NCBI GenBank assembly: GCA_023139205.1
Contig: JAGLOA010000005.1
Span: 1-44,978, forward strand
Reading direction: 5' to 3'
DNA from: Candidatus Pacearchaeota archaeon
GTDB lineage: Archaea; Nanobdellota; Nanobdellia; Pacearchaeales; GW2011-AR1
Length of the DNA stretch: 44,978 nt
Position numbers and translations under genes: made by a program. Position 1 is the stretch's first letter, and each line of letters opens with the position of its first letter. Shown here piece after piece: positions 7,388-33,479 of the stretch. The notes beneath the pieces were generated by a model. That model was not told the DNA's origin, ran no database searches, and saw only the letters and a list, made by a program, of their open reading frames with translations.

Positions 7388-8265
7388 CCCCTAATCTCCA
7401 TTTCAACCAACTTCTTCTTTTTCTTTTTCTCCCTAATCTTCTTCTCTTCATCTAATAAGTAATTTTCATCACTAACAACATCTTCTCCAGTTTCTTGTTC
7501 TAATTCTTCTCTTGCATTTTTTGCAATCTTTCCACCTTTTCTAGAAACATTAATATGCTCTTCAAATTCTTCTGGATTTTGTGTTCTTTCAATTTCTGCT
7601 GTAGATGCCTCTCCAAGCATACCAAAAATCAATTCCAAATCAGTCATATGGTCTCTCAGGTTTTCTTTATCTAATCCTTTAAATTTTTTATATTCATTTG
7701 GAGTCATTCCAAAACTGGCTTTAGAAATTTCTGCTGTTAAAATTGCAAAATCACTTTGTTCTCTCGTGCCCTTTAGGGTATCAACTCCTCTTATTTTCCA
7801 TTCATCAGTTAAATCCTGCCGAACTGCAATCCCTCTTAATCTTTTATCAATCCACATTTTAGAATATCCTTTTTTCTCATAAATTTCTTTCATTCTCTCT
7901 TGAGCTAACTCTGGGTTTTCTATTTCCTGAACTCTTTCATAACCAACTTTTGCAAGCCATCTCTTAAACGGCTCTGCTTTTTTTGATGGGATTGACTGGA
8001 TTATTCGGAAAATACCTTCTGTATCTGCACAATTCATTAATTGTTTCCCTCCTTTTGTATGGATTAAAAGGGTATGTACAATTTGTACCCATCCTTCTGC
8101 TAAAATTTCATCTCTTTGCTTTATTTTTTGGATATATTGCTTAGGGTCTTTTGAGTAAGTTAAAACAGAAATAATATCCTCCAGAACAAACCACCATCTT
8201 TCAGCATACCAAGTTTTTCTTATAGCCTTTCCATTAAATATAGCTATATGTGTTTCTTCTTTCAT
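7384..8265 (-). CDS. Bro-N (phage antirepressor-like) protein
   Basis: IRKTW...WWFVLEDII, GGKQ, RIIQSIPSKKAEPFKRWLA, NLRDHMTDLEL. Confidence 0.9.
   Translation of the reverse strand: MKEETHIAIFNGKAIRKTWYAERWWFVLEDIISVLTYSKDPKQYIQKIKQRDEILAEGWVQIVHTLLIHTKGGKQLMNCADTEGIFRIIQSIPSKKAEPFKRWLAKVGYERVQEIENPELAQERMKEIYEKKGYSKMWIDKRLRGIAVRQDLTDEWKIRGVDTLKGTREQSDFAILTAEISKASFGMTPNEYKKFKGLDKENLRDHMTDLELIFGMLGEASTAEIERTQNPEEFEEHINVSRKGGKIAKNAREELEQETGEDVVSDENYLLDEEKKIREKKKKKKLVEMEIRG
7763..7783 (-). repeat. 21-bp palindromic element in frame in the Bro-N gene (TGATACCCTAAAGGGCACGAG)
   Basis: 19/21 identical to 33347-33367; encodes DTLKGT. Confidence 0.8.
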
Positions 8266-8280
8266 TTTTGTTTTATTCTC

Positions 8281-8493
8281 TTAAACTTTAAATTTATTTG
8301 TATTTTTCTTGCCATCCAGATAAGTTATAATAATCTTTCTTGCTTTTTCATCTTCTGCAAGATAAGAATAAAGTTCTTTTCCTTTCTCCAGATTGCACCC
8401 TTCAACTACTAGTTTATTAATTGAAATATATGCTGTTGCTCTTTTGAAAATTATCCTGCTTTTCCAGCCAATTCCAAGAGGTTTAAGTTTCAT
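8281..8493 (-). CDS. AbrB/SpoVT-like small protein
   Basis: YISINKLVVEGCNLEKGKEL resembles the swapped-hairpin signature. Confidence 0.6.
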   Translation of the reverse strand: MKLKPLGIGWKSRIIFKRATAYISINKLVVEGCNLEKGKELYSYLAEDEKARKIIITYLDGKKNTNKFKV

Positions 8494-8502
8494 AGATTAT
8501 TT

Positions 8503-8535
8503 AGGCACCTCAATTATATAAACTTTTTGGTGCCT
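8503..8535. promoter_or_regulatory. inverted-repeat operator AGGCACC...GGTGCCT around divergent TATA boxes
   Basis: 7-bp arms at 8503-8509 and 8529-8535 flank the minus-strand TTTATATA; + strand TTTATATA at 8541. Confidence 0.6.
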
Positions 8536-8563
8536 CAAAATTTATATATTAAAAAAACATTAT

Positions 8564-8758
8564 GTGATGATGAAAATACAGAAAAGATTTTTGAGAAAAT
8601 ACAAAGACAAAGATTATTACAAATATATTGTGAATATTCCTCCAATGGTTTTGAAAGAAACTGGATTAAAATATGGGGAAGAATTAGAAATTAAAACAGA
8701 AAAAGGGAAGATTATACTTAAGAAGAAGCTTAAGAAGCTTAAGAAGATTAAAGGGTGA
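8564..8758 (+). CDS. AbrB/MazE/SpoVT family DNA-binding protein
   Basis: YIVNIPPMVLKETGLKYGEELEIKTEKGKIIL. Confidence 0.85.
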   Translation: MMMKIQKRFLRKYKDKDYYKYIVNIPPMVLKETGLKYGEELEIKTEKGKIILKKKLKKLKKIKG

Positions 8759-8765
8759 GATGGAA

Positions 8766-9217
8766 TTAATTAAAATCTTCTTTAATTTCTTTTAATTGCT
8801 CCAAAGCAGATTCTAGCTCTTTTGTTAATTCATTTGTAATAATCTTTGGATTGGGAAGTTTGTCTAAATCGTCTAAACTTTCATCTTTCAGCCAAAAAAT
8901 ATCTAAGTTTGTTTTATCTCTCTTTAAAATTTCTTCATAATCAAAACATTTGAATCTTTCTGATTCTTTTCCTAATTCATTTAGTAATTTAATATAATGT
9001 TTTTCTAATTCTACACCTTCTTGATCTAAAAGAGACTGCCAGTTATATTTTTTTGGAATATCGCTTTTTTTATTGTAAGGGGATTTTGTTCTTTCGTGGT
9101 CCATTTTAAGAATAATAAATAAGTTAGCTGTTCAACATAATCTCCGTAAGAAAGACCATCGTCTCTAAGTACATTGCAGTAATTCCAAAGTTTGCTTACT
9201 AATTGTTGTGATGTCAT
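8766..9217 (-). pseudogene. hsdM: type I HsdM remnant (frameshift + internal deletion of catalytic core)
   Basis: N-term LVSKLWNYCNVLRDDGLSYGDYVEQLTYLLFLK; one A missing at LK/M; fused to C-term RDKTNLDIFWLKDES; no GxG or NPPF motif. Confidence 0.85.
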
Positions 9218-10161
9218 TTTTTGTTTTTTTCAAGTTTATCCTTAAGTTTTTTGTATTCTTTCATATATAATTTTATTGTGGGCATTAAATTTTTATTTAA
9301 TTCATATTCTTTTAGTGTTTTATAATATTCACTGCTATTTTCTAAATCAATATTTATTGGGGGAAGTTTATGTTTTATTAAAATATTGTTTAAGAGAATT
9401 CTTCCAACTCTTCCATTTCCATCTGCAAAAGGATGTATGTTCTCAAATTGGTTGTGGACAACAGCTCCAAGAATAAGTGCAGGATATTTTTTTTTGTTCT
9501 TGTCATGCCAGTTTATTAATTCTTTCAATAAATAATTAATTCTTGTTTGGGGGGCACCTTCATGAACTATCTGCCCAAGATTATTTGCTACAACAACTTC
9601 TTCTCCTTTTTTTCTTAGTTTCCCTGCAAAAGACTTGGAATTTTTAAAAACTATTTTATGTATTTTTTTAATTAATTCAACTGAGAAATGTTCTTTAGTT
9701 TGTCTGATAAATCTTATTGCTTCATCTACTCCGTAAGCTTCTGCAATGTCCTCTTTTGATTTGTCAGGCCATTTATCTTCTTCTAAAATTTCCCTAACTT
9801 CTTTTTGATTTAGTCTGCTTCCCTCTATTGCATTAGTGTTATAGGTGAAAATTTCAGAAAAAAGTTTCCAATCTTCTTCGGATAAATGCGAAATTTTAAG
9901 AGGGATTTCTGATTCTAATTTTTTTATTTCATTTATTTCTTCTTTAGTTAACTCAAATTCAAGGGGGTCTTTTATTATTTTATATTTATGTATCTCTTCA
10001 AGAATTAATTTTTCTGCGATTATTTTTCTTTCTTTTAGTTTTTCTGATTTTAAATCTGTTCCAAGATATTTTCTAAACTTATGAACTTTTGAGCCCTCCC
10101 TATAAGAATGAGCTAAATAATATTTTATTTTTTTTCCTGACTTTCTTTTTTCAAGGTGCAT
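9214..10161 (-). CDS. Fic family protein (canonical AMPylase motif) with N-terminal basic domain
   Basis: HPFADGNGRVGR; TYNTNAIEG. Confidence 0.95.
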   Translation of the reverse strand: MHLEKRKSGKKIKYYLAHSYREGSKVHKFRKYLGTDLKSEKLKERKIIAEKLILEEIHKYKIIKDPLEFELTKEEINEIKKLESEIPLKISHLSEEDWKLFSEIFTYNTNAIEGSRLNQKEVREILEEDKWPDKSKEDIAEAYGVDEAIRFIRQTKEHFSVELIKKIHKIVFKNSKSFAGKLRKKGEEVVVANNLGQIVHEGAPQTRINYLLKELINWHDKNKKKYPALILGAVVHNQFENIHPFADGNGRVGRILLNNILIKHKLPPINIDLENSSEYYKTLKEYELNKNLMPTIKLYMKEYKKLKDKLEKNKK

Positions 10162-10173
10162 AATAAGATAATG

Positions 10174-10235
10174 GGTGTCTACATATTTAAAGCTTTTGGT
10201 TTAGGTGTCTACATTTAGCTTATTTTGTAGTCACC
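10174..10235. promoter_or_regulatory. three GGTG(T/A)CTACA boxes upstream of fic
   Basis: GGTGTCTACAT at 10174-10184 and 10204-10214 (30 bp apart, flanking the TATA); inverted copy TGTAGTCACC at 10226-10235. Confidence 0.7.
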
Positions 10236-10265
10236 TTTTTTTACAAACTTTTGATTTAATTTGAG

Positions 10266-10317
10266 AATTAGAGTTTTAGACCATGTAATTATTGGGAATG
10301 GGAAATTTTGGAGTTGG
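10266..10317 (+). pseudogene. radC: remnant 3' end of radC
   Basis: Translates IRVLDHVIIGNGKFWSW versus IKVLDHVIIGDGKFWSW in the intact gene. Confidence 0.9.
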
Positions 10318-10355
10318 ACGGAAAAGACTTTAAAATAGTATTTATTGAGATTTAT

Positions 10356-12710
10356 ATGAATAAAAAGCAATTAACAGAAACAGATATAAGAACAAAATTC
10401 ATTACCCCTAAAATAATTGAAGCGGGATGGGATAAGGATAGTCAGATAAGAGAAGAAAAATATTTCACAGATGGGAGAATAATAATTTCAGGTAAAACTA
10501 TCAAAAGAGGGAAGCCGAAAAAAGCAGATTATATTCTTTATTATAAACCAAATATCCCTTTGGCGATTGTTGAAGCAAAAGACAATAAACATTCTGTTGG
10601 GGCAGGGATTCAACAAGGAGAAGAATATGCAAAGATTCTTGATATTCCGTTTGTTTTTAGTTCAAATGGAGATGGTTTTATTTTTTTAGATAAAGAAAAA
10701 GGTAAGGAAATAGAAATTTCTCTGGATGAATTTCCTTCTCCAAAAGAATTATGGGAAAAGTATAAACAATATAATGATATAACAGAAGACATTGAAGAAA
10801 TAATCACAACAGATTATCATTATGAGCCAGATGGAAAAAAGCCGAGGTATTATCAGAGTATTGCGGTGAACAGGGTTGTTGAAGCAGTTGCAAAAGGTCA
10901 AAAAAGAATTCTTTTGGTTATGGCTACTGGCACAGGAAAAACTTTTACTGCTTTTCAGACATTATGGAGATTAAGAGAAGGCTGGAAGAAAACAGGAAAG
11001 AAAAATCCAAGAATTTTATATTTATCAGACAGAAATATTTTAGTTGATGATCCAAAGAGAAGAGACTTTAAACCACTCTCTAAGGTTTCTGTAAAAGTTA
11101 GCAAAAGAAAAATGGACCCTGCTTATGAAGTCTTTTTTGCAATATATCAGGGCGTTTCAGGAAATGAGGATTTAATGAATATTTACAAAAACCTTTCTAA
11201 AGACTTTTTTGATATTATTGTTGTGGATGAATGTCATAGGGGAAGTGCAAAGGCAAATTCTGCATGGAGAAAAGTTTTAGAATATTTTGAACCTGCAACG
11301 CAGATTGGTATGACTGCTACTCCAAAAGAAACAAGTGATGTTTCAAATATAGATTATTTTGGGAAGCCGGTTTACACTTATTCATTAAAGCAGGGGATTG
11401 AAGACGGCTTTCTTGCTCCTTATATGGTTCTTAAAGTTGCATTAGATAAAGATATTCAGGGATACAGACCTAAGAAAGGTGAAAAGGATAAATATGGAAA
11501 TGAAATTCCAGATGAGATTTATACCAGCAGAGAGTTTGACAGGAACTTGGTAATTGATGAAAGAACTCAGATTGTTGCTAAAAAAATTACAGAATTTCTG
11601 AAGAATACAAACAGGATGGATAAAACAATTGTTTTTTGTGTTGATATTGAGCATGCAGAGAGAATGAAAAGGGTGTTGAAAAATGAGAATTCTGATATGT
11701 ATAAGAAAAATAAAAAATATATTATGAGGATTACTGGGGATGAGAAAATTGGAAAAGCTCATTTAGATGATTTTTTAGATCCTTCGCAAAAATATCCTGT
11801 TATTGTAACAACTTCAAAACTTTTATCCACAGGGGTTGATGCTCAAACATGCAAATTAATTGTTTTAGATGCAAACATTAATTCAATGACTGAATTTAAA
11901 CAAATTATTGGAAGAGGGACAAGAATAAATTTAGATTATGATAAACATTTTTTCACAATTATTGATTTTAGAAATGTTACGAATAAATTTGCTGATAAAG
12001 ATTTTGATGGAGACCCTGTTCAGTTAATCACATTTAAACAAGATGAAGAAATTAAACCAGAGGAAATTGAAGATGAAGGGTTAGAAGAAGGGGAGAAGAT
12101 TATTTATCAAAAACCAGATGTTAATATTTATGAAGAAGAAACAAGACCTAAAAAATATTATGTTAAAGAATCAGAAGTTAAAGTAATTAATGAGTCTTAT
12201 CAATATTTGGATTCTTCAGGCAAGTTGATTACAGAATCAATTAGGGATTATACAAAAAAAGGGATTAAGAAGAAATACAGGACAATGAATGATTTTATTC
12301 AGAACTGGAATATTGCTGACCAGAAAAGAGCATTGATTGATGAGCTTCAGGAATACGGGCTTATTTTAGAGGCATTGAGAGAGCAGGTTCCAAACGGAAA
12401 ATCCTATGATGCTTTTGATTTGATTTTGCATATTGCTTATGGAAAAAAACCTTTAACAAGAAGTGAGAGGGCAAAAAAAGTTAAGAAAGATTCTTATTTT
12501 GAAAAATATGGGGAAAAGGCAAGAGAAGTAATAAATGCGTTGTTAGATAAATACAGCTGTGAGGGAATTGCGAATTTAGAAGATGCTGAAGTTTTAAGAG
12601 TTAAACCCTTGGATGAATTTGGAAGACCTTTAGAGATTATGAAAATGTTTGGGGGGAAGGTGCAATATGCTAAGATGATTAAAGAGTTAGAGGGAGCTTT
12701 ATATAAATAA
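10356..12710 (+). CDS. hsdR: type I restriction subunit R (EcoAI/EcoEI-like)
   Basis: ADY...VEAK nuclease, MATGTGKT, DECH, TATP, QIIGRGTR; ATG 10356 lies 27 nt after a TATA box. Confidence 0.97.
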   Translation: MNKKQLTETDIRTKFITPKIIEAGWDKDSQIREEKYFTDGRIIISGKTIKRGKPKKADYILYYKPNIPLAIVEAKDNKHSVGAGIQQGEEYAKILDIPFVFSSNGDGFIFLDKEKGKEIEISLDEFPSPKELWEKYKQYNDITEDIEEIITTDYHYEPDGKKPRYYQSIAVNRVVEAVAKGQKRILLVMATGTGKTFTAFQTLWRLREGWKKTGKKNPRILYLSDRNILVDDPKRRDFKPLSKVSVKVSKRKMDPAYEVFFAIYQGVSGNEDLMNIYKNLSKDFFDIIVVDECHRGSAKANSAWRKVLEYFEPATQIGMTATPKETSDVSNIDYFGKPVYTYSLKQGIEDGFLAPYMVLKVALDKDIQGYRPKKGEKDKYGNEIPDEIYTSREFDRNLVIDERTQIVAKKITEFLKNTNRMDKTIVFCVDIEHAERMKRVLKNENSDMYKKNKKYIMRITGDEKIGKAHLDDFLDPSQKYPVIVTTSKLLSTGVDAQTCKLIVLDANINSMTEFKQIIGRGTRINLDYDKHFFTIIDFRNVTNKFADKDFDGDPVQLITFKQDEEIKPEEIEDEGLEEGEKIIYQKPDVNIYEEETRPKKYYVKESEVKVINESYQYLDSSGKLITESIRDYTKKGIKKKYRTMNDFIQNWNIADQKRALIDELQEYGLILEALREQVPNGKSYDAFDLILHIAYGKKPLTRSERAKKVKKDSYFEKYGEKAREVINALLDKYSCEGIANLEDAEVLRVKPLDEFGRPLEIMKMFGGKVQYAKMIKELEGALYK

Positions 12711-12725
12711 GACAGGGAGTTAATA

Positions 12726-13511
12726 ATGAAAGAATTAAATTTAAAAGATGAGAAAAAAATGCTGATTTTTGATATTAAGGACAACCTTTGTCCTTATTGT
12801 AGTTATCCCTTATCTGAAGATGAGAATCCCTATTTTAGAAACCAATGTTACAGTTGCAATTCGATTGCAAAAGCTATAAGAGATGCACCTCAAAATTCTT
12901 TTATCAAAAAAATGCCAACAAGACCATATTACTTTGATAAAATAGTTTGTCTTGGAGAATATTATAAATTAAAGGAATCCCTCAAAGAATCAAAGGATCC
13001 TGCTCACCTTTTATCATTATGTATAATACATTATAAAGATCACACAGATAATGTGGAATTCTTTTCTAGTTTATTGAAACAAAAAATAGAAAATTTTATG
13101 GAGAAAAATTTGCTGAGAAAAAAAGATATTATATTATGCGGAATTCCTGATTTAATCTCTAAAGAACACCAGAAAACTGATTTATTATGCAAAAAAATAT
13201 CCCAGAAAACAGGAATTGTATATATTCCTTTTGTCAAAAAAGTAAAAGAGATCCCAAAACAGCATAAGAAAGAAAAAATTATTGAAAGGTATGAGAATGT
13301 TCAAGGAGCATATGTAATAGATGAGAAACGAAAATTTGACATAGATAAAAAAATTATTTTTTTAATTGATGATATTATTAGTACAATGGCAAGTGTAAGT
13401 GAATGTTCAAAAAAATTAAAGGGAAGTGGTGCAAAAAAAGTGTATGTTTTTGCTTTAGGAAGAAATATCTTTAGACCAAAACAAGGAGGGGAAAAAAATG
13501 AACATATATGA
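12726..13511 (+). CDS. ComF-like phosphoribosyltransferase with Zn ribbon
   Basis: CPYC...CYSC, R..NV.GAY, IFLIDDIISTMASV PRPP loop, GAKKVYVFAL. Confidence 0.85.
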   Translation: MKELNLKDEKKMLIFDIKDNLCPYCSYPLSEDENPYFRNQCYSCNSIAKAIRDAPQNSFIKKMPTRPYYFDKIVCLGEYYKLKESLKESKDPAHLLSLCIIHYKDHTDNVEFFSSLLKQKIENFMEKNLLRKKDIILCGIPDLISKEHQKTDLLCKKISQKTGIVYIPFVKKVKEIPKQHKKEKIIERYENVQGAYVIDEKRKFDIDKKIIFLIDDIISTMASVSECSKKLKGSGAKKVYVFALGRNIFRPKQGGEKNEHI

Positions 13512-14433
13512 TTATGTTTTGGAAAAATTAGCAGAGAATAAGAGATTAACAGATCCTCTTGTGGTTAGGTACGGGGATGCGGAGAAAATTCTCAACCTTT
13601 CCAATGATGAAATTGCTAAGATTCTTTTTTCTACTCAAATACATGAAGAATCTATTAAAAAATTCTTAGAAAATAAAAGCGAGTTTAATTCAAACCCAAA
13701 GGAATTTATTTCAAGGTATAATCTAGAAGTAGAGAGAATAAGAAAAACATTTGGAGTAGAAATAATTTCTTTTTCAGATAAGGAATATCCCCCTCAACTA
13801 AAAAAAATAAAAGAAATCCCTCTTAGCCTTTATGTTAAAGGAAAATTAAATTTTAATTACGAAAAAAGTGTTTCTATTGTGGGGACTAGGAAACTAACAA
13901 TCTATGCAAAGAAGAAAGTCAGAGAGATGACCTCTGAATTAGTGAAAAAAGGATTTTGTATAATTAGTGGTCTAGCAAGGGGAATTGATACTGAGGCACA
14001 TACATCCACGATTCTCGCAGGAGGGAAAACCATCGCAGTTTTACCCTATATAAATGAAATTTATCCTCCTGAAAATGAACCTTTATCTAAAGAAATCATA
14101 GATTCAGGGGGGGCAATTGTTTCTGAGAATTGTTTTTTTTCAAGACAATACAACCGTTCATTATTCCCTCAGAGAAACCGAATGATTAGTGGGCTTTCTA
14201 AAGGGGTTTTTATCGTTGAGGGTTCAAGGATAAGTGGATCTTTGTCCCAATATAACCATGCTAAAAGGCAAGGAAAGATAATTTTTTCATTAAAACCAAT
14301 TTATAAACATGAAGGAGATTACCTCCCAAGATTAATTATGGGACAACAAGGGAATTGGGTTACCTCCAGCGAAGATATTATCAGATTGTTAGGGGAGAAA
14401 AGAAGGAACCAGAAAAGTCTTTATTATCTATAA
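13498..14433 (+). CDS. dprA: DprA/Smf ssDNA-binding protein
   Basis: YPPQL, SIVGTR, IISGLARGIDTEAH, RNRMISGLS, VEG...SGSL; lacks a C-terminal winged helix. Confidence 0.93.
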   Translation: MNIYDYVLEKLAENKRLTDPLVVRYGDAEKILNLSNDEIAKILFSTQIHEESIKKFLENKSEFNSNPKEFISRYNLEVERIRKTFGVEIISFSDKEYPPQLKKIKEIPLSLYVKGKLNFNYEKSVSIVGTRKLTIYAKKKVREMTSELVKKGFCIISGLARGIDTEAHTSTILAGGKTIAVLPYINEIYPPENEPLSKEIIDSGGAIVSENCFFSRQYNRSLFPQRNRMISGLSKGVFIVEGSRISGSLSQYNHAKRQGKIIFSLKPIYKHEGDYLPRLIMGQQGNWVTSSEDIIRLLGEKRRNQKSLYYL

Positions 14434-21596: not shown

Positions 21597-23126
21597 TCAT
21601 AACTCATACAACTTTTTAACAATCTTCACTTCAGCCAAAGTATCCAACTCACAATATTTCTCTAAAGCATCTCTAATTTTTTTTCTTTCTTCATCATCAA
21701 CATCTTCATCATAAGTTATTCTTTCATATTCATAACTCGCCAATGCCCCATTTTTAATATCCATCTCATTATAAGACAAATCACTCATCACAGGCAAGAC
21801 ATATTTTATACTTGCAGAACCTTTTTGTTTAGAATCATAATACCAGAAATTTCTAAAGACATCCCAAAGGTCTTTTATTCTTAATTGAATATTTTTCTCA
21901 TACCATTCTTTAAACTCTTGGAAAGCATCTGAACATTCCCTCATAACTCCTTTCTCAAAACCCTGATTGTAAACTAAAATATCTCCTTTATCTCCCAAAC
22001 TATCTTTTAATGCCTGTAAAAATTTTGATCGCGGATTACTTGTTCCTTCTGCTAAAAAAGAAATATGTTTTAATTCAGAATCTTTGCTTTCCTGAACATG
22101 CAATGAGAACTGAAAAGGAATTCTTTGATAAGGTTTCATTCCATCAAACTTAGGAATTGCAGGATTAATTGTTTCAAAATCTAAATAATAAATTGGATAC
22201 TTTAAATTTTTCAAAAAGAAATCAATTTGCTCTTTATCTATATGTTTTCCATTATTTTTGCCCTCTTTAGAGGGTACGCCCTCTCCCAGACCTACTTCCT
22301 CTGGACCTACTTGGTGGTTGGGTGCTGCCAGAAGTCTTTGAATTTTTTGCTTGTCATTTAGTTTAACATCATCTGGAACTTCATTTAACTTTTTAATTCC
22401 TGAATCATATAATTCAAAACATTTCAACTTCCTCATCCTGTAAAATTCAAATACACTTTCCTCTGGAACATCTTTCCAACATTCTTCTTTTATCGGGCAA
22501 TCATAAGGATCACTACAATAAACTCCTATTGAACAATTTGGCTCTCCTTCAGATTCAATAATTTTAATCATATTCTTTATTCTTCCTTTAATTCCTTTTG
22601 AAAATTCTTCGACCTTTTCAGTTATATCTGTCTGAACAAAAAATTCTTTTGGCTCAATCTCTCCATCCTTAACACATTCATTATTAATATGCATCAAAAA
22701 ACATTTTCTTATTTTCAATCCTGTTTTTTCATAAACATATTTCTGAAAAGAAACATCATGAATATTCACCTCCTTTACTTTTGTTGCACTTTTTACTTCA
22801 ATAATATCCCATTTATTTCCGACAGGAGAAAGAACATCTGCTCTTGAAAAAAGTCCTTCTTCTAAAAAACCTGCTTCAAATAAAGGGACTTTCTTATTCA
22901 ACTTTTTTTTAGTGCTATCAATATTTTTCTTAAATCCCAACTCTGCCAAATCAATTCCGTCTTCAAAAACCTTTTTAGCATATTCTCCAATTATCTTCCC
23001 CACATCAAACTTTTGCTGAGCAAGTTTATCTGGTTCTGGAATTCTCTCTTTATCATTAATTTTAACCCATAATAATTTGGGGCATTGTAATCCCAAAAGA
23101 TAATTTGATTTTGTTAAAAATGCCAT
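21597..23126 (-). CDS. DUF2779-type protein (Cas4-like PD-(D/E)XK + RNase H-like domain)
   Basis: CPKLLW, RADVL...IIEVKS, C..PYDC...EC, YLDFET, PYQRIPFQFS, YCELDT. Confidence 0.85.
   Translation of the reverse strand: MAFLTKSNYLLGLQCPKLLWVKINDKERIPEPDKLAQQKFDVGKIIGEYAKKVFEDGIDLAELGFKKNIDSTKKKLNKKVPLFEAGFLEEGLFSRADVLSPVGNKWDIIEVKSATKVKEVNIHDVSFQKYVYEKTGLKIRKCFLMHINNECVKDGEIEPKEFFVQTDITEKVEEFSKGIKGRIKNMIKIIESEGEPNCSIGVYCSDPYDCPIKEECWKDVPEESVFEFYRMRKLKCFELYDSGIKKLNEVPDDVKLNDKQKIQRLLAAPNHQVGPEEVGLGEGVPSKEGKNNGKHIDKEQIDFFLKNLKYPIYYLDFETINPAIPKFDGMKPYQRIPFQFSLHVQESKDSELKHISFLAEGTSNPRSKFLQALKDSLGDKGDILVYNQGFEKGVMRECSDAFQEFKEWYEKNIQLRIKDLWDVFRNFWYYDSKQKGSASIKYVLPVMSDLSYNEMDIKNGALASYEYERITYDEDVDDEERKKIRDALEKYCELDTLAEVKIVKKLYEL
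22259..22276 (-). repeat. expanded palindromic element (TACCCTCTAAAGAGGGCA) inside a GC-rich in-frame insertion
   Basis: Same TACCC-TAAA-GGGCA core as 7763-7783 plus 2 extra base pairs. Confidence 0.65.
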
Positions 23127-24967: not shown

Positions 24968-27133
24968 TTAACTTATTTCTTCACTTAGCTCATCAAAACC
25001 TTTTTGCAGAGAATTTAAATCTAATGTAAGATCTTCAATTGTATTTCCTTCACTAATTTCAACTTCCATGGTTTGTTTTTTTCCGCCAAACAAATTTTTA
25101 AACCAGTTTACTATTTTTGAAAAAACTCCTTGATTTGATGTTTCTCTAATTGCTCCTCCAGTTATAGTTGGATCAAATTCTTCTCCTGGATTTTCATGAC
25201 CTGGTTCATAACTATCTGGTCCTGTTCCAGAATCATCTCCAAATTCACCTGAAGCATCTTTACATTCTATATCTACAATACATTCATAACCTTCACCAGA
25301 GTCTCCATAAATCGGCTCTCCATAACAATGTTCACATCTTGAAGTACATGCATTTTCTTTTTCTTCTAATTGTTCTTCAGTTATACAAGCACCTTCATAT
25401 AATCCAACACATTTTTCAGCACACTCTCTGCATCTTGGATTTTGCTCTCCTGCTCCTTCTTCCTGTCCTGGCATACAGGTTACTCCTGGTCCAACACATT
25501 CCATAATGCACATTTCTTCTTTGCTCATATCAGGCATACCTTCCATATCCTCCCTGTCGTCCATCTCTGGTCCTTTTCTCATTCCACATTCATCTTCACA
25601 TTTTTCTAAATTCTTTTCCATGCATGCAAACATTCCATCATCACACCCTCTAACAATACATTTTTCCATACAAGCTTCTGCTTCAGGATCTTCTCCAGGT
25701 CCATGAGGTCCTATTATTATTTTTTTAAGTTTATCACAACTTCCTACACAGCTAATATCTTGTTTTATTAAATCTTCAGTTCCTCTAAAAGTAGTATAAT
25801 ACCTTCTTGGAACACCATATTCTGCACTTTCTCCATCAGCCATATAAACGATTATTTTACAAATTCCTTCAGAAAAAGAAAGATCAATCTTAACAATTTT
25901 ACCATCTGGGTCTGGAGGAACAAAGGATTCAACATCTTTATATTTGTCACAATTTCTAACTTTTTCTAAAGAAGATTTTTCTTTTTCAACCCATTGCTTT
26001 AATTCATCTTTATTTTGAAAAGGTCCTCCATAAAATTCCTCATACTGCTCAAACATTTCTTCAGCAATATAATCTTCTGTTGGCATTTTTCCTTCGATAA
26101 TTCCTGTTGTAACATCAGAAAGAGTTTTTTTCAAAGACTGCACATTAGACAAAATTTCTCTTCTTTTATCTTCGCTTAAATTTCCCATTGCTAAATCAAT
26201 TTTAATATCCTGTATCTTATTTTCAACACCCTCTAATCTTTCTTTTGCTTCATCAAAAATCTCTCCTTCAAAATTTTCAAGTTTAGTTTTAATTAAACCA
26301 ATACCATCTTCCATTTTTTCCAGTCTTTTAGCTGAATTCTCTATTTCTTTCTGGGTTATTTTTCCTAATTCTTTTTTTATCTTAATTGTTTCCTGCTCCC
26401 TTAAAATACATCTTGGCTCTCCTTTAATTAAAGTGAATTTTCCACCATCTTTCTTGCACATAATAGCCTGCTCTTTTAAAGGGTCTTCTTTATATTTTTC
26501 TTTTAGTTTTTCATCAAATTGTTTTTTGAAATTTTCATTAATACACATAACTGAAGAGCAACCACCTTCATCAACAAAATGCTCAACTTTGCCTTGACAA
26601 GTTTTTTCAACTTCATCTAATTCTTCCTGTGTTGGACATTCTGTGCTTGCAAATCCTGCATTACCCTGCTTAATACATACTGGATTACCTTCAACAATCT
26701 CAAATTTTCCATCACAATTATCCATCTCATTTTTAATATTAAATTCATTAAATTCCTGCTTATCAAAATCACATTCCATCTGCATTATTCCATTTCCAGT
26801 TTCTTTCATCTTACATCCTTCTGGAATTTCTTCTTCCCCAAAATATTCTTTTTCAGATTCAGGGAAATCTTTTCTTTCAAAATCTTCATAATCCTCAGAA
26901 GTATCTTTTTCTTCAAAATCTTTAGAATCATCAAAACTTTCTTGTGGAGTGTTGGAAGGAGAATCCATATTTTCTTCATTAGGGGAAAAAATTTCATCTT
27001 CAGGAGATTCACTTTGCTCATAAACTTCTGGTATTTGTTCTTGTTCAGGATCTGTTTCTTCCTGTGCAAATGAAACAGGAGTTAGAATTAACATACACAA
27101 AACTAAAAATACAAATACCTGCCCCTTTTTCAT
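24968..27133 (-). CDS. large secreted acidic Cys-rich protein with coiled coil
   Basis: Signal peptide MKKGQ...VSFA, many CxxxC, ITGGAI and amphipathic FSKIVNWFKNLFG near the C-terminus. Confidence 0.85.
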   Translation of the reverse strand: MKKGQVFVFLVLCMLILTPVSFAQEETDPEQEQIPEVYEQSESPEDEIFSPNEENMDSPSNTPQESFDDSKDFEEKDTSEDYEDFERKDFPESEKEYFGEEEIPEGCKMKETGNGIMQMECDFDKQEFNEFNIKNEMDNCDGKFEIVEGNPVCIKQGNAGFASTECPTQEELDEVEKTCQGKVEHFVDEGGCSSVMCINENFKKQFDEKLKEKYKEDPLKEQAIMCKKDGGKFTLIKGEPRCILREQETIKIKKELGKITQKEIENSAKRLEKMEDGIGLIKTKLENFEGEIFDEAKERLEGVENKIQDIKIDLAMGNLSEDKRREILSNVQSLKKTLSDVTTGIIEGKMPTEDYIAEEMFEQYEEFYGGPFQNKDELKQWVEKEKSSLEKVRNCDKYKDVESFVPPDPDGKIVKIDLSFSEGICKIIVYMADGESAEYGVPRRYYTTFRGTEDLIKQDISCVGSCDKLKKIIIGPHGPGEDPEAEACMEKCIVRGCDDGMFACMEKNLEKCEDECGMRKGPEMDDREDMEGMPDMSKEEMCIMECVGPGVTCMPGQEEGAGEQNPRCRECAEKCVGLYEGACITEEQLEEKENACTSRCEHCYGEPIYGDSGEGYECIVDIECKDASGEFGDDSGTGPDSYEPGHENPGEEFDPTITGGAIRETSNQGVFSKIVNWFKNLFGGKKQTMEVEISEGNTIEDLTLDLNSLQKGFDELSEEIS

Positions 27134-27157
27134 AAAGAAAAGAATGAATTTTAATTT

Positions 27158-29815
27158 TTAATTGTTTCTATATTTGACAAACTTATAAATTTCTCCTACA
27201 ACAAATACAGAACTCGCTAGGAGAGTTATCATCCCAAACTCAAAAAAACTTAAGGGAACAAACTGAAATACTCTTGATATCCCCGGTAAATAAATAACTC
27301 CAAGCATCATTAATAATGAAGTTGCAAGAGCGACTATCATCCATTTATTTGAAAAAATTCCAATCTTAAATAAAGATTTTTTTAAAGAACGCATATTAAA
27401 TACATTAAAGAGCTGGAACATTGACATAGAAACAAATGCAACTGTTCTTGCCTTGTCTAAACCTTGTGGAAGAAAATATTTGAAAAGAGGGATTGTCCCT
27501 AAAACCATAAGCCCCACCATTAAAATTAAAAAAGGGATTAATTCTTTGTTCAAAATTTTTTCTTTTTTATTTCTTGGGGGATGATTTAAAGCATCATTGT
27601 GTCCTGGCTCCATTGCAAGAGCAATACCTGGAGGAGTATCAGTAACTAAATTCAAATAAAGTAATTGAATAGGCAGCATTGGAAGAGAAAATCCCATTGT
27701 CAAAGCAGAGATAATTGTGAAAGCCTCTGCAATATTTGTTGTGATTAAATAAAAACTTGTCTGACGAACATTTTGAAAAACAATTCTTCCTTCTTCAATT
27801 GCATTGATTATTGAAGCGAAATTGTCGTCAGTCAAAATAATCTCGCTTGATTCTCTTGCAACATCTGTTCCTATAATCCCCATGGCAATTCCAATATCTG
27901 CTCTTTTCAAAGCAGGAGCATCATTAACTCCATCACCAGTCATAGCAACAACTTCTCCTTGTTCCTGCAATGTTTTAATAAGCTTAGATTTCATTTTCGG
28001 GGTAACTCTTGAAAAAACATTTATTTTTTTTACAGCTTCTTTAAATTCCTGTTCAGACATTGACTCTAATTCTTTTCCGGTAAAAGATTTTGTTTTTCCC
28101 TGGACCAACCCAATTTCTTTTGCAACTGCAAGAGCAGTTTCTTTATGGTCCCCTGTTTTCATAATAATTCTTATCCCGGCATTTCTTGCTTTTTTTATTG
28201 CTTCTTTTATTTCCGGGCGAGGAGGATCTTTCATTCCAACAAAACCTAAAAAAACAAGATTATTAACCAAATCCTCAGAAACAGATTTTGTATAATGAGG
28301 CAAATCCCTATATCCTAATGCCAAAACCCTTAGTCCTTTTTTTGCTAAAGATTCTGCTTTAATTAAAAATTCTTTTGTTGTTTTATCATCAAATTTTAAT
28401 TTCTTGCCAGATTTAATAAAATAAGTAGATTTATTTAAAATAGTTTCAAAAGCTCCTACTGAATAAAGTTCTTTTTTATTATCAGACTCAATTAAACTTG
28501 CCCTGAATTTTAATTCAGAACTAAAAGCAAGGTCATCAATTATTTTTTCTTTTATCTCTTTATCTAATCCGGATTTTCTCCCTAAAACAAGAAGCGCTAC
28601 TTCAGTTGGGTCTCCAATAATTTCATATTCGTTATTTTTCCTAACAAGATTCCCTTTATTACAAAGAAGAGAAATTTTCAAAATTTTTCTAAGCAAAGGA
28701 AATTTAAGAGGATTTATTGGTTTTTTATTTTGTAAAAATTTTCCCAAAGGTTCCCATGCATTTCCCGTGATATTAAATTCTTCATCAGAAGTAATAATTT
28801 CTTCCACCATCATGGAATTCTTAGTTAAAGTTCCTGTTTTATCTGTAGCTATAATTGTTGCAACTCCTAAAGTTTCAACTGCAGGCAAATGTCTTATCAC
28901 TGCATTTCTTTTTGCCATACGCCTAGCCCCAATTGCTAAAACAATAATTAAAACTGCAGGCAACCCCTCTGGAATTCCTGAAACTAATGTGGCAATAGTA
29001 AACAGAAAAATTTCAAAAAATTCTAATTTATTTATAAAAAAACCAATAACAAAAGTTAAAGCAGCCCCTATTCCTGCAAAAATAGACATTTGAATTGCAA
29101 GTTGAGTTACTTTTTTATTAAAGTGCATTTTTGGCTGAACAATTTCCTGAATTGATTTTGCAACTTGCCCAACTGCTGTGTGATTTGCTGTTTCTACAAT
29201 TACTGCTTTTGCCTCTCCTGAAACAACTAAAGTTCCCATAAAAACCATATTAACACGGTCTCCTAAAGAAGCAGATTTTTCTAAGATTTTCAAGTTTTTT
29301 TCTACAGGAAAAGATTCTCCTGTTAATGAAGCTTCCTGAGTTCTGAAATTTTTTAGTTCTATTAAACGTGCATCTGCAGGAATTTTATCTCCTTCTTCTA
29401 GAAAGATTATATCTCCCGGAACAATTCTTTCTGAGGGTATTTTTATTAATTGATTATTTCTATAAACTTTTGCGTAAGAAACAATTAATTTTTTCAAAGC
29501 ATCTATTGCTTTTTCTGCTTTTCTTTCCTGGACAAAACCAATTGTAGCATTAATTAAAACCACTGCTAAAATCACATAACCATCTACAAGATGGTCAAAA
29601 ACAAAAGAAATAATCATAGCAACAAATAAAACATAAATTAATGGGCTGTTAAATTGTTTGAGAAAAATTAATATTTGAGGGGTTTTCTTTTTTTTAGAAA
29701 TTTGATTTAATCCAACTTCCCTTAATCTTTTTTCTGCCTGACCCTGGGTTAACCCTTCGTTTGAAGTTTTTAATTCTTCAAATATCTCCTCTTTTATTTT
29801 GGAATGCCATTCCAT
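27158..29815 (-). CDS. P-type ATPase, P2A (Ca2+-type)
   Basis: TGES, IPEGLP, DKTGT, TGD, GDGVNDAPAL, NLVTD. Confidence 0.95.
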   Translation of the reverse strand: MEWHSKIKEEIFEELKTSNEGLTQGQAEKRLREVGLNQISKKKKTPQILIFLKQFNSPLIYVLFVAMIISFVFDHLVDGYVILAVVLINATIGFVQERKAEKAIDALKKLIVSYAKVYRNNQLIKIPSERIVPGDIIFLEEGDKIPADARLIELKNFRTQEASLTGESFPVEKNLKILEKSASLGDRVNMVFMGTLVVSGEAKAVIVETANHTAVGQVAKSIQEIVQPKMHFNKKVTQLAIQMSIFAGIGAALTFVIGFFINKLEFFEIFLFTIATLVSGIPEGLPAVLIIVLAIGARRMAKRNAVIRHLPAVETLGVATIIATDKTGTLTKNSMMVEEIITSDEEFNITGNAWEPLGKFLQNKKPINPLKFPLLRKILKISLLCNKGNLVRKNNEYEIIGDPTEVALLVLGRKSGLDKEIKEKIIDDLAFSSELKFRASLIESDNKKELYSVGAFETILNKSTYFIKSGKKLKFDDKTTKEFLIKAESLAKKGLRVLALGYRDLPHYTKSVSEDLVNNLVFLGFVGMKDPPRPEIKEAIKKARNAGIRIIMKTGDHKETALAVAKEIGLVQGKTKSFTGKELESMSEQEFKEAVKKINVFSRVTPKMKSKLIKTLQEQGEVVAMTGDGVNDAPALKRADIGIAMGIIGTDVARESSEIILTDDNFASIINAIEEGRIVFQNVRQTSFYLITTNIAEAFTIISALTMGFSLPMLPIQLLYLNLVTDTPPGIALAMEPGHNDALNHPPRNKKEKILNKELIPFLILMVGLMVLGTIPLFKYFLPQGLDKARTVAFVSMSMFQLFNVFNMRSLKKSLFKIGIFSNKWMIVALATSLLMMLGVIYLPGISRVFQFVPLSFFEFGMITLLASSVFVVGEIYKFVKYRNN

Positions 29816-29864
29816 AATTATATAAAAATAGTAAGGTTTAAAAATTCATTCTTCTCTTTGATTT

Positions 29865-30181
29865 TGTAAGTTGGGTAGTTAACTTCGGGACTCTGACATT
29901 AAATTGTCAAGAAATAAAAATGATTTCTGGGTTCTGTGGAAGGTCCGCCCACCACAATAAAGTTATCAGGAGAAATCCTGGCTATCGTGAGGTAGAGCGC
30001 TGTTACAGAAACGCCACAGCTTTCGTTGAGTTATGAAACTTGCGTGGAACTTTGAAGCGAAAGATTTGATGAAACGAACATCTTAACTGGTGCAAGGTCT
30101 TGAACCGCATAGTGAAATGTTAACAAGTTCTGTCTGAATAAGATCAGAGAACTACAGAAGGTGGCCTATTCCCAACTTACA
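29865..30181 (+). ncRNA. rnpB: archaeal RNase P RNA
   Basis: P1 TGTAAGTTGGG/CCCAACTTACA; GGAAGGTCCGCCCACC and ACAGAAGGTGGCCT forming P4; ACAGAAA, TGAAACG, GGTGCAAG conserved blocks; TATA at 29837. Confidence 0.93.
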
Positions 30182-30782
30182 TTATTCTTAAAACTTTTAA
30201 AATTATCAATGCAATTTGCCCGTTAAATCCTGCAAAAACAGGGATGATCATATTATCATCTGCATGAATAAAAAAAGTTTCTACAAATGTTGCTGTTAAT
30301 GCCATTACTAAAACAAGCATCCAATTTTGTAAGAAGATAAATCCAATAAAAAGATTAACTGCTAATTCAGCAATTACTCCTTCCCATTTTTTGTGTGGAA
30401 CACGTTTAATTTTATGTTTTCCAAATTTCATTCCAACCAAAGCTGCAGTTAAATCTCCAAAAATTGTCATTAACAAAGCTACAAAAGCAATTCTAAAATC
30501 AAAAATAGAAAAAGCGATTATAATTCCTAGCATAAAATAAACATGGCTTGCTATTTTATTTTTTTCCTTATTTCTATAAAAAACATGAATAAAAGGTATT
30601 TTCTTTTTGTGTTTTATCCTAATAAATTCTATAGATAAAAAAATAATTAAGACAAATGTTAAAGATAAAAGGGCTAAGCTTCTACTTATGTATTTTGCAA
30701 TTAAAACATAAAGAATAATTGGGATTAAAGAAGTTAAATGGATTAATTTTCTTCTGAGTTCAAAACCAAAGGATTTTCCCAT
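30177..30782 (-). CDS. SEC59/DGK1/VTE5-family CTP-dependent lipid kinase
   Basis: RRKLIHL, GDLTAALVGMKFG, KKWEG, DDNMIIP. Confidence 0.9.
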   Translation of the reverse strand: MGKSFGFELRRKLIHLTSLIPIILYVLIAKYISRSLALLSLTFVLIIFLSIEFIRIKHKKKIPFIHVFYRNKEKNKIASHVYFMLGIIIAFSIFDFRIAFVALLMTIFGDLTAALVGMKFGKHKIKRVPHKKWEGVIAELAVNLFIGFIFLQNWMLVLVMALTATFVETFFIHADDNMIIPVFAGFNGQIALIILKVLRIM

Positions 30783-30905
30783 ATTTTATAGTAGATATTT
30801 CTGTATATAAATTAAGCGAAAACATTTAAAAGTCTAAAAGAACCATTATTTCTATTGGAATCTTGGCTATATGCTTCGTGGAGGGCTAGGTTCTTGAGAA
30901 AGTAT

Positions 30906-30977
30906 GGGGCCCTAGCTCAGCGGGAGAGCACATGACTGAAGATCATGGTGTGCTGGGTTCGACTCCCAGGGGCCCCA
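30906..30977 (+). tRNA. tRNA-Phe (GAA), intronless, CCA not encoded
   Basis: GGGGCCC/GGGCCCC acceptor, GCTC/GAGC D stem, CATGA-CTGAAGA-TCATG, CTGGG-TTCGACT-CCCAG. Confidence 0.97.
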
Positions 30978-31101
30978 TTTTAAAATGAAAGACACCCGTT
31001 GGTTTCTTTCGAACTTCCTCTAATTGTGGAACGGCGATTTCTAATTGCCTCCGTTGAAATCGCACAAAACATTTATAAAATAAAATCTCTATACTTTTAT
31101 A

Positions 31102-31368
31102 ATGGTGAAAAAAGAGGCAAAAGAAATTGGTGAAGGACTTGGAATTTCTGGTTTTACCTTAGGATTTTTCAGCATCCTCTTAGCTGGTTGGTTAGGGATA
31201 ACAACTTCAATTTTTGGATTTATCTTTTGTTTTATTCAACAAAAAAATAAGCCTACTAAACTTGGGAAAATAGGGATGACCCTAAATATAATTGGGTTTA
31301 TAGTTAGTATAATTTTTATTATTATTTATACTTTTTATTTACCACAAATATTACAACAACTTGGATAA
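31102..31368 (+). CDS. small membrane protein (DUF4190-like)
   Basis: GFTLG...G..F..IQ.K...GKIG..L.IIG pattern. Confidence 0.7.
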   Translation: MVKKEAKEIGEGLGISGFTLGFFSILLAGWLGITTSIFGFIFCFIQQKNKPTKLGKIGMTLNIIGFIVSIIFIIIYTFYLPQILQQLG

Positions 31369-31369
31369 A

Positions 31370-31930
31370 ATGAAATCAAAAACAGGAGCAATGGAGATGA
31401 GTGTTGGTACAATTGTTACCATAGTTTTACTTATGAGTGTTTTAGTTTTAGGAGTTTTCTTAGTAAATAAAATTTTCTCAGGTGCAACTTCAAGTGTTGA
31501 TGAGATTGATCAAGAAGTAAAAAAACAAATTAGTGAATTATTTTCAGCAGATGAAACAAAAGGAGTAATTGTTTATCCTCCTTCAAGGAAAATAGAAATT
31601 AAAAAAGGTGAAGAGGGCAAAGGATTTGCATTTTCAATAAGAAATAAGGGAGATGAAAAACAGACTTTTGAGTACATTATTACTGCAGAAGATACAACTT
31701 GTTCAATAAGTAAAGAAGAAGCAACCGAATACATTGCATTAGGAGGCGAAGGTGAAAAAACTATTGGAGCTGGGCAGATTATGGAATATCCAGTACTTGT
31801 TACATTTAACCTTCCTGAATCAGCTCCACCTTGCAATATTAAATATAAATTGCTGGTGGAATGCTCAACATGTGGGACAGATTACCCTGTTTCTGATGTG
31901 GATATAGACTTACTTATTAAGGGGAAATAA
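31370..31930 (+). CDS. archaeal pilin-like surface protein
   Basis: MKSKTG/AMEMSVGTIVTIVLL class III-like signal plus hydrophobic helix, beta-rich C-terminus. Confidence 0.65.
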   Translation: MKSKTGAMEMSVGTIVTIVLLMSVLVLGVFLVNKIFSGATSSVDEIDQEVKKQISELFSADETKGVIVYPPSRKIEIKKGEEGKGFAFSIRNKGDEKQTFEYIITAEDTTCSISKEEATEYIALGGEGEKTIGAGQIMEYPVLVTFNLPESAPPCNIKYKLLVECSTCGTDYPVSDVDIDLLIKGK

Positions 31931-31966
31931 ACTTAAATTTTTAAATTACTTTTTCTTGAATTATTT

Positions 31967-33349
31967 ATGCCTTTAAAATTATATAATACTTTAACAAGAA
32001 AAAAAGATATTTTTAAGCCGATTCATGATAAAAAAGTCGGGATGTATGTTTGCGGTCCTACTGTTTACTATTATGCACACATAGGTAATTTTAGAGCATA
32101 TGTTTTTGCAGATACATTAAGAAGAGTTTTAAAATTTAATGGATTAAAAATTAAGCAAGTCATGAATCTAACTGATGTTGGACATTTAACTGGAGACGGA
32201 GATGAAGGAGAAGACAAGATAGAAAAAGAAGCAAAAAAAGAGAGAAAAACTCCTGAAGAAATTGCAGATTTTTATGCGAAAAAATTCTTTGAAGATTTTG
32301 ACAAATTAAACAATGAAAAACCTGAAATTATTTGTAAAGCCACAGAACATATTAAAGATATGATTCAATTAATAAAAAGATTAGAAGAAAAGGGTTTGAC
32401 TTATATTGGGAAAAATGGAAATGTTTACTTTGATACTTCTAAATTAAAAGACTACGGGAAACTCGCAAATTTAAAACTCGATAAATTAAAATCTGGTGCA
32501 AGAATAAAAGTTGATGAAGACAAAAAAAATTCCAGAGATTTTGTTTTATGGTTTGTAGAAAAAGGAAGTAAATATAAGGGACACTTATTGAAATGGGATT
32601 CCCCTTGGGGAGAAGGATGGCCAGGATGGCATATCGAATGTTCTGCTATGTCAATTAAATATCTTGGGGAGCAATTTGACATACATACTGGAGGAGAAGA
32701 CCACATTCCAGTTCACCACACAAATGAAATAGCACAAAGCGAAGGAGCTACTGGAAAAAAACCCTGGGTAAAAATATGGATGCATAATTCATTTTTGCAA
32801 TTTAATTCTGAAAAAATGTCAAAGTCAAAAGGAGGAATTTTAAAATTACAAGACTTATTAGATAAAAGCTATTCTCCAATGAATCTTAGATATTTTTATT
32901 TATCTGGTCATTACAAAAAGCCATTAAATTTTACTTTTAAAAATCTTGATAATGCTAAAACAACTTATCAAAGATTAAAAAATATTATTTCAGAAATTAA
33001 AGAGGATAAAAAAATAAATAAAACATATTTAAAAGAATTTGAAAATTCAATGAATGACGATCTGAATACTCCAAAAGCATTGCAGGTTTTATGGAAACTT
33101 GTTCGTGATAAAAAAACTAAAGGAAAATTAAAAACAATAAAAAAAATGGATGAAATTTTTGGTTTAGATTTGTTGAAAAAAGAAGAAATTAAAATTCCTG
33201 AAGAGGTAAGTAATCTTGTTAAAGAAAGAGAAAATGCGAGAAAGAGAAAAGACTGGGAAATGGCAGATGAATTAAGAAATAAAATTAATAAATTGGGTTA
33301 TGTTGTTAATGATACAAAAGAAGGAGTTATTGTAAAGAAAAATGACTGA
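31967..33349 (+). CDS. cysS: cysteine--tRNA ligase
   Basis: [31 protein letters not shown]. Confidence 0.98.
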
Positions 33350-33479
33350 TAACCTAAAGGTCACGAGCGAAAATAAAGATTGTCCTTGTCCAGAAACCTG
33401 GTGCTCAAAACATGGGAAATGTTCAGAATGTCAGGAATACCATCAGGCAAGAAATGAAAAAACTTTTTGGGGGAAATGA
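33342..33479 (+). CDS. small Cys/His metal-binding protein (45 aa, not in ORF track)
   Basis: My translation [45 protein letters not shown]. Confidence 0.65.
   Translation: MTDNLKVTSENKDCPCPETWCSKHGKCSECQEYHQARNEKTFWGK
33347..33367 (+). repeat. 21-bp palindromic element (TGATAACCTAAAGGTCACGAG)
   Basis: 19/21 identical to the 7763-7783 copy; the two differences are a compensatory pair. Confidence 0.8.

Follow-up and report, generated by a model that had tools for sequence, protein, structure and literature searches.

The stretch of DNA analysed here (44,978 nt of contig JAGLOA010000005.1 from a Candidatus Pacearchaeota archaeon; hereafter the window) contains two near-identical 21-nt sequences, one in the gene for a Bro-N domain protein and the other in a small cysteine-rich open reading frame (ORF). 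These two matches are probably copies of a gene-less insertion element of 18 nt, 5'-TAMCCTRAAGGKCACRAG-3', a reading to which a rough probability of 0.8 is assigned. The analysis shows that the exact 18-nt unit has been copied-and-pasted or cut-and-pasted into many unrelated sites, with a preference for the apices of hairpins, including its own loop. Furthermore, insertion has been recent: alleles that otherwise match differ in the presence of the element.

On the minus strand, positions 7763–7783 read TGATACCCTAAAGGGCACGAG, and on the plus strand positions 33347–33367 read TGATAACCTAAAGGTCACGAG. An earlier note on this DNA (the original prediction) had described the two sequences as identical at 19/21 positions, with the differences constituting a C-G to A-T swap in a hairpin stem, and as sharing frame and orientation (DTLKGT in Bro-N and DNLKVT in the 45-aa ORF); all of this can be read directly from the letters. 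A search of the window with a degenerate 21-mer, allowing up to three mismatches, returned only these two sites and 0 matches in 100 dinucleotide-preserving shuffles. The proposed size of 21 nt had to be revised, however: only 18 nt are inserted, and the TG/A bases ahead of them are host sequence.

Insertion sites and anatomy of the element

The Bro-N gene provides the clearest site. All of the best 58 of the 120 homologues listed (65–98% identity) lack the six residues when aligned, reading RGV[E]------EQSDF compared with RGVDTLKGTREQSDF in the window. The close homologues carry the source labels Nanoarchaeota, Pacearchaeota or Woesearchaeota, which places the organism among the DPANN-type archaea. 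One protein of 287 aa (P0003) matches the window protein (P0001) at 286 of its 287 residues, the differences being E for D and the six-residue gap, and the two forms are recorded on one and five contigs. Because an otherwise identical allele without the element exists in public data, the Bro-N insertion is recent. Deletion of the 18 nt restores GGA GTT GAA GAA CAA (GVEEQ) and no alternative placement of an 18-nt deletion works; therefore, the junctions, GA^[18 nt]^AGAA, are unambiguous and there is no target duplication. A TA target duplication as in Tc1/IS630 is excluded by the same junction.

NLKVTS is absent from the N-termini of 9/9 homologues of the cysteine-rich ORF, which without the 18 nt would begin MTDENKDCPC, compared with MQEENKNCPC in the closest homologue. 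A genome search detected matches to this ORF in 13/60 related genomes, and a word-based protein search returned no homologue of it. The original prediction that short peptides are added to unrelated proteins is supported by homologue alignment in both genes. Its suggestion that the element supplies the stop codon of the upstream cysS-like ORF is not: removal leaves AAT GAC TGA CGA, in which the TGA precedes the insert. The occupied sites of this genome are not occupied in the other collected loci. In bacteria, a given host repeat occurs both with and without the element, the difference being precisely 18 nt, and it carries 0, 1, 2 or 3 units or a nested pair. Neither target duplication nor terminal inverted repeats were present at the Bro-N junctions, in the aligned copies or at the bacterial empty and filled sites; the exact 18-nt unit is inserted directly after a purine, mostly A.

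One short sequence recurring in assemblies of very different organisms, often at palindromes, might also be expected if a library or assembly sequence had been inserted at hairpins. Such a technical artefact is extremely improbable. The Bro-N site, with its copy, is spanned without differences by contigs of four separately assembled runs; these runs come from a single study, however, and the source sample may be among them. In addition, stem variants covary, archaeal copies are in frame and biased in orientation, and isolate genome records such as that of Methylobacter marinus A45 hold many copies; we know of no adapter with the sequence of the element. A form without the 18 nt at the Bro-N site was absent from the contigs of these four DNA runs, bearing in mind that contigs drop rare variants. 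A look-up of RNA runs for positions 1–10,000 of the window listed none.

The unit comprises a 5-bp stem (TAMCC/GGKCA), a 4-nt TRAA loop and a 4-nt CRAG tail, i.e. a single 14-nt hairpin followed by four nucleotides. An A.C mismatch at the second stem pair is conserved in both main types (214/227 copies, in a set biased by locus fetching), and the element begins with TA and ends with CRAG (reverse complement CTYG...TA) in 227/227 unique copies. Conservation drops sharply at both 18-nt ends in the 65 unique copies with full flanks, and the flanks are unconserved beyond position -1. This position is A in 37 cases and G in six at loci fetched without fixing it, and A in 82, G in 22, T in 11 and C in 10 among the 125 matches listed from a global scan (one genome per prokaryotic species; at least 120 stretches). 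Position -2 is a purine in 55/65 unique full-flank copies. The scan pattern permitted all four combinations at the third stem pair (3-12); among the same 125 listed matches it is C-G in 72, A-T in 51, A.G in two and C.T in none. Since a non-pairing combination occurs in just 2/125 of these, the matches are not mostly due to chance. A relaxed search of a copy-rich bacterium added the arm types CCACC/GGTGG, TCACC/GGTGA and TGCCC/GGGCA.

One reading frame is open in both variants, xAT AMC CTA AAG GKC ACR AGx, and encodes the six residues [ND][TN]LK[GV]T[SR]; in the A-T variant, each of the two remaining sense frames contains a stop. The second open frame of the element encodes the peptide YPKGH. 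Several resemblances were tried and rejected: a kink-turn, since the CACAAG variant lacks the necessary G.A pair, and, by inspection, an archaeal TATA/B recognition element promoter and a T3-type phage promoter.

With a stem of just 3–5 bp, the similarity might in principle have arisen without any copying, whether by chance, because a certain peptide motif is favoured or because sequences converged on a stable hairpin cap. This is scarcely credible. All 18 positions are common, including the asymmetric 4-nt tail and the A.C mismatch; the codons ACC, CTA and GGC are retained in a 29% G+C genome; and the T-to-N and G-to-V changes are compensatory in the DNA and not conservative in the protein. 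Controls with the reversed pattern gave 0–1 matches, and predicted stability is not above that of shuffled sequences. The empty and filled sites and the Bro-N allele pair also contradict it.

The features of the window, which has a G+C content of 29%, are listed in Table 1.

Table 1. Positions of the element copies, their host genes and other features in the window.
Feature	Position	Strand	Remarks
Bro-N domain protein, 293 aa, element host	7384..8265	-	Pfam PF02498, E 4.8e-13
18-nt element, C-G type TACCCTAAAGGGCACGAG	7763..7780	-	In frame in Bro-N gene; GVEEQ becomes GV-DTLKGTR-EQ
Different composite in-frame GC-rich insert in DUF2779 gene, peptide APNHQVGPEEVGLGEGVPSKEGK	22257..22325 (approximate, ~69 nt)	-	From homologue alignment
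Archaeal RNase P RNA	29866-30180		134.7 bits
tRNA-Phe(GAA) gene	30905-30978		
cysS-like ORF (name from the original prediction)	31967..33349	+	Stop TGA 33347-33349 is host sequence, directly before element
Conserved 45-aa Cys-rich ORF, element host	33342..33479	+	No Pfam family
18-nt element, A-T type TAACCTAAAGGTCACGAG	33350..33367	+	In frame after codon 2-3 of small Cys-rich gene; adds NLKVTS

A third copy had been proposed in the DUF2779 gene. The sequence in question, TACCCTCTAAAGAGGGCA, is indeed present at 22259–22276, but it is part of the different composite insert given in Table 1, which also holds a core, ACCAAGTAGGTC. The insert is absent from this position in 59/60 homologues; one homologue (P0123, 81% identical) has just APKGVPSKEGK, which points to stepwise nesting at the site. 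The core has five copies in the genome (the window, C12:17465, C14:1956, C15:28713 and C16:23791) and encodes peptides such as PNQVGL[RK]EGVP; the C14 copy is part of an insert of 24 residues in a gene that we take to be Kae1-like. Chains of small GC-rich hairpins with the layout TA-stem-AAGNA-stem-CRAG were also observed at C15:28676-28790 and ~C15:54875 (minus strand), one just upstream of a start codon and the other within an open frame, and may be relatives of the 18-nt element. Individual look-alikes of the element exist, but a generic genome scan for a TA-hairpin-CRAG layout gave six matches compared with eight and four in two controls, showing no superfamily. Elsewhere in this genome, a k-mer scan revealed a tandem repeat with a period of ~156 nt in 6–7 copies (C1:51460-52450).

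Copies in archaea, bacteria and viruses

The assembly (720,764 bases in 21 contigs, with no 16S rRNA gene found in it) holds four copies of the element in total. The third is flanked by a membrane-protein ORF and an 87-aa winged-helix gene (PF14947), and the fourth by two long ORFs, presumably encoding the small and large subunits of DNA polymerase D; an extra right half, AGGTCACAAG, follows the fourth copy. Among genomes of the same family, the exact 18-mer (with a TAAA or TGAA loop) gave 159 matches in 41/401 genomes and 28/191 genera, compared with one match for the reversed control, each positive archaeal genome having 1–12 exact copies. In a sample of the whole phylum it was found in 2/401 genomes, both of this family, and in 0/373 genomes from other families. 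A 19-nt pattern with up to one mismatch was matched in 9/61 related genomes (reversed control 0); a match in another family (G050), which has one mismatch and runs antisense to a long ORF, is probably fortuitous. The collected loci, amounting to 1.30 Mb, contain 227 matches in unique contexts and none for the control. These counts, together with the stem covariation, agree with the original description of a dispersed, structure-conserved element without a gene, and the further copies sought by pattern search were far beyond chance, reaching hundreds in some bacteria.

Of 66 unique archaeal copies, 32 are in the TLKGT frame of an ORF of at least 100 aa and three in the second open sense frame, with none in the sense frame bearing TAA; 26 occupy short or non-coding stretches and five have their longest ORF on the other strand. 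The last group includes a real antisense in-frame copy within a 35-residue composite insert (L117) and a case that proved to be a wrong-strand artefact (L042). A mini-intron cut out by the archaeal splicing endonuclease (bulge-helix-bulge type), leaving the proteins unaltered, would be compatible with a length that is a multiple of three and with the sense orientation of the archaeal copies, but is very unlikely. The count of 0/66 copies in the stop-bearing frame is expected only if the element is translated, and the frame statistics accordingly point to translation rather than removal from RNA. Furthermore, no bulge-helix-bulge could be drawn by inspection from the element and its variable flanks, bacteria carry hundreds of copies without that endonuclease, and the copy in L117 is in frame in the antisense direction.

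When 18 host ORFs were compared with the orthologues of this genome (L016 being the window itself), exact six-residue gaps were found for L003, L008, L012 and L018 (site 1276), and two gaps for L017. L003 and L008 represent one protein, presumably Kae1-like, with the insert at an identical site in two genera. Gaps were larger or ambiguous owing to low complexity in L010, L015, L018 (site 1501), L022, L024 and L032, and no usable orthologue alignment was obtained for L005, L006, L014, L019, L021 and L028.

Three archaeal loci have additional repeats. One copy is located 20 nt past a tRNA-Gln gene, in an ~80-nt insert whose boundary is a repeat of 15 nt from the tRNA 3' end (L029 1501-1613, G005:C28). 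In L110 (G281:C8) and L111 (G296:C7) there are tandem duplications of 48 and 51 nt, respectively, with one element each; those of L110 are translated within a GTPase-like gene, and in the units of L111, upstream of a gene start, GGAGG pairs with CCTCC around the element.

The record titles among the matches listed from the global scan include Woesearchaeota, Pacearchaeota and Nanoarchaeota metagenome-assembled genomes (MAGs), as well as Syntrophaceae, Smithellaceae, Methylobacter, Methylomicrobium, Crenothrix, Gallionellaceae, Endozoicomonas, Planctomycetia and a Lachnospiraceae bacterium, among others. In five of these genomes, all bacterial, there are 225, 80, 82, 11 and nine copies at up to one mismatch, with none for the reversed control; M. 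marinus A45, an isolate genome record of a cultivable organism, has ~80. The bacterial copies are mostly intergenic and, with 20 against 26, have no orientation bias relative to neighbouring ORFs, both results being based on crude ORF calls. They typically cap larger host-specific palindromes. The flanks pair over at least 6 bp in 29/125 of the matches listed from the global scan, compared with 39/2493 random positions.

Copies also enter one another. Nested copies lie within the loop of another copy at CCTAA^AGG, for example ATACCCTAA[TAMCC...CACGAG]AGGGCACAAG, and a Syntrophaceae locus has four nested layers with differing arms; head-to-tail arrays of 2–4 units also occur. Two head-to-head doublets in M. 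marinus A45 (L265 and L266; G426:C1:349079-349129 and 803516-803566), spaced 13 nt apart, have a layout resembling that of the hairpin-forming doublets (REPINs) of repetitive extragenic palindromic (REP) sequences. A search for an autonomous parent with cargo between the left and right halves found just nested copies, and inverted element pairs in one genome (G425) flank ordinary genes.

Matches were present on 13 viral contigs, nine of which belong to one unrelated family of 44% G+C with a non-pairing C..T combination; the remaining four look genuine. One of these four (L123; 53% G+C), which carries a tailed-virus structural module according to PHROGs, has six copies with 0–2 mismatches at 1460, 2712, 6504, 6534, 8258 and 9209. 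Four of these are 17–41 nt ahead of start codons, and the major head protein gene is among the genes so preceded.

Mode of movement and the candidate enzyme

The element would be moved in trans by an enzyme that recognizes, on single-stranded DNA, a small hairpin together with a short tail, and that cleaves behind RA or RAG. We tentatively consider this enzyme to be a HUH/Y1 tyrosine transposase of the IS200/IS605 or REP-associated tyrosine transposase (RAYT) type, since the lack of target duplication, the preference for hairpin apices and the strand-specific look of the unit fit enzymes that act on single-stranded DNA, among which the HUH/Y1 transposases of IS200/IS605 and the REP-associated RAYTs are the best known. 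In archaea, the in-frame pattern may mainly be the outcome of filtering. Because gene-dense archaeal genomes of 29% G+C hold little non-coding DNA, the surviving copies would mostly be those in the one shared open, hydrophilic sense frame, with the remainder in short leaders. An RA^W site preference would additionally favour the splitting of AAA, GAA, AAT and GAT codons after the second base.

The earlier statement that no mobilising enzyme is visible holds for the window; a Y1 gene occurs elsewhere in the genome, with a weak link to the element. This one Y1 gene of the genome has hairpin ends beginning ATACCCCAAGG and ATGCCCTAAGG. This gene (C12:15960-16480; L069, L089; PF01797, E 1.4e-31) is flanked by hairpins with an 8-bp stem, CCCYAAGG TCTTG CCTTRGGG, and the hairpin core also occurs on its own at two places on C2, separated by 2.5 kb (C2:22611 and C2:25162; L070). 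Among 21 Y1 loci of element-bearing archaeal genomes, a look-alike was found at two, G005:C65 and G025:C96, on one side only. In G005, a genome with 13 matches of the 19-nt pattern, the stop codon of a Y1 gene is followed 18 nt later by a 16/19 look-alike, and a homologous end was found in an element-free genome (L109). In G025, a Y1 gene is followed by TGATATCTCTGCCCTAAAGGACAGAG. Y1_Tnp matches were obtained in 5/5 multi-copy bacterial genomes, including ORFs of 229–287 aa. Several Y1 genes (L083, L079, L081, L087 and, at ~974 in G122:C110, L084) encode YPKGH, and the bases in L084 match the first 15 nt of the element with one mismatch; this coding resemblance is probably a coincidence.

A number of observations weigh against the picture of an enzyme-moved hairpin. 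The hairpin is marginal, with DNA energies of -1.2 and -0.3 kcal/mol and an RNA energy of about -3, and its energy z-scores are no different from those of shuffles; because the lone hairpin is weak, the case for structure rests on covariation rather than energy. Y1_Tnp was detected in 17/41 element-bearing compared with 99/360 element-free archaeal genomes, the MAGs being incomplete, and no Y1 match was found in the multi-copy genomes G254, G296, G280 and G133. The suggested check for a mobilising gene flanked by the motif turned out negative: 0/8 Y1 loci in five bacterial genomes are flanked by the element on both sides, although two have copies within 1.5 kb on a single side. Target sites share no fixed tetranucleotide beyond the base preference at -1 and the purine at -2, and the element has one hairpin whereas two are found at IS200/IS605 ends. 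That 18 nt are nearly identical across domains could also indicate some functional constraint. Finally, of 27 non-coding archaeal copies, 19 are co-oriented with a downstream ORF of at least 90 aa, four are opposite and four have none called; direct reading of one opposite call (L007) and three copies with no call (L111) reveals that a gene in the same sense starts within 20 nt. This sense bias is not explained by peptide selection alone.

The same bias, i.e. at least 19/27 copies co-oriented with the downstream gene, would be accounted for by a cis-acting signal, a protein-bound RNA or DNA hairpin that controls translation, RNA stability or processing and whose spread is secondary. Many copies lie within ~20 nt of a start codon, the four viral copies described above are 17–41 nt upstream of start codons, and the sequence is nearly invariant across domains. 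Nevertheless, such a signal appears unlikely, because copies are found at non-homologous sites within unrelated housekeeping genes, are polymorphic between identical alleles, and occur nested and in tandem arrays. Bacterial copies cap unrelated host hairpins without orientation bias. Moreover, any intergenic insertion in a compact genome will be near a start codon, and Rfam has nothing matching at the element.

Returning to the insertion element, a broader proposal can be put forward only with reserve: the 18-nt hairpin and tail may be a complete transposable unit, the smallest known, which is moved by an enzyme to hairpin apices, has crossed almost unchanged between Bacteria, Archaea and tailed viruses, and generates hexapeptides in essential proteins of DPANN archaea. 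If true, this would set a new lower size limit for mobile DNA, and a minimal enzyme substrate, namely a 5-bp stem with a single mismatch, closed by a tetraloop and followed by a 4-nt tail, would make the enzyme findable. The near-identical sequence in one archaeal family, several bacterial phyla and a virus is a compact marker for the exchange of DNA between domains in sediment and groundwater communities. For annotation, the element accounts for six-residue inserts [ND][TN]LK[GV]T[SR] in conserved archaeal proteins, and such indels should not be taken as phylogenetic signatures.

Comparison with known systems

The resemblance to REPs and to Rickettsia palindromic elements (RPEs) noted in the original prediction is supported. 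REPs are imperfect palindromes of ~20–40 nt that carry no genes, number tens to hundreds per genome and have a GTAG or CGTC tag, and REPs and REPINs are thought to be mobilised by RAYT, a Y1 HUH transposase (PMC3733652). Both REPs and the element are short gene-less palindromes in multiple copies, often nested in or next to palindromes and occasionally in ORFs, and both correlate poorly with transposase genes (PMC3733652). Compared with the REPs described there, the element has no GTAG or CGTC tag and is a single unit of just 18 nt with a 5-bp stem and exact boundaries. In addition, about half of its archaeal copies are inside genes, and no Y1 gene is flanked by it. REP families are typically lineage-specific, whereas the element is almost the same across phyla and two domains.

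RPEs are ~100–150 bp long and confined to Rickettsia (PMC10969869). They are, like the element, selfish palindromic repeats of an AT-rich reduced genome, placed in frame in unrelated, often essential genes and presumably translated into additional loops (PMC10969869). The element differs in having 18 nt and six residues and in being present in free-living bacteria and a virus as well.

Members of the IS200/IS605 family are moved in a single-strand 'peel and paste' process by the Y1 transposase TnpA, and their gene-less derivatives are known as palindrome-associated transposable elements (PATEs). The element resembles these in the absence of target duplication and terminal inverted repeats, in its hairpin with a short tail at the cut site, in the preference for single-stranded or hairpin DNA and in the near-copy at the end of the IS200-like gene of G005. 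However, it has neither distinct left and right end hairpins nor a fixed tetra- or pentanucleotide target, only R-A, and its phyletic link to Y1 genes is weak. It differs from classical miniature inverted-repeat transposable elements in lacking terminal inverted repeats and target-site duplication. Insertion sequences that target REPs likewise enter the loop or apex of a palindrome at a constant position, but have their own transposase, whereas the element is gene-less.

GC clusters and translational bypass elements (byps) of fungal mitochondria are 27–55 nt or longer, and byps are skipped by the ribosome. Like the element, they are GC-rich mini-hairpins that spread in AT-rich genomes, including coding regions; unlike byps, the element has frame statistics that indicate ordinary translation. 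No description of the element was found in the literature, including by a text search for its 13-nt strings, with supplements and subscription journals outside the coverage of the search. The element works like a REP and, in archaea, like an RPE, yet it fails defining features of both, as it does of IS200/IS605 derivatives and classical miniature inverted-repeat transposable elements.

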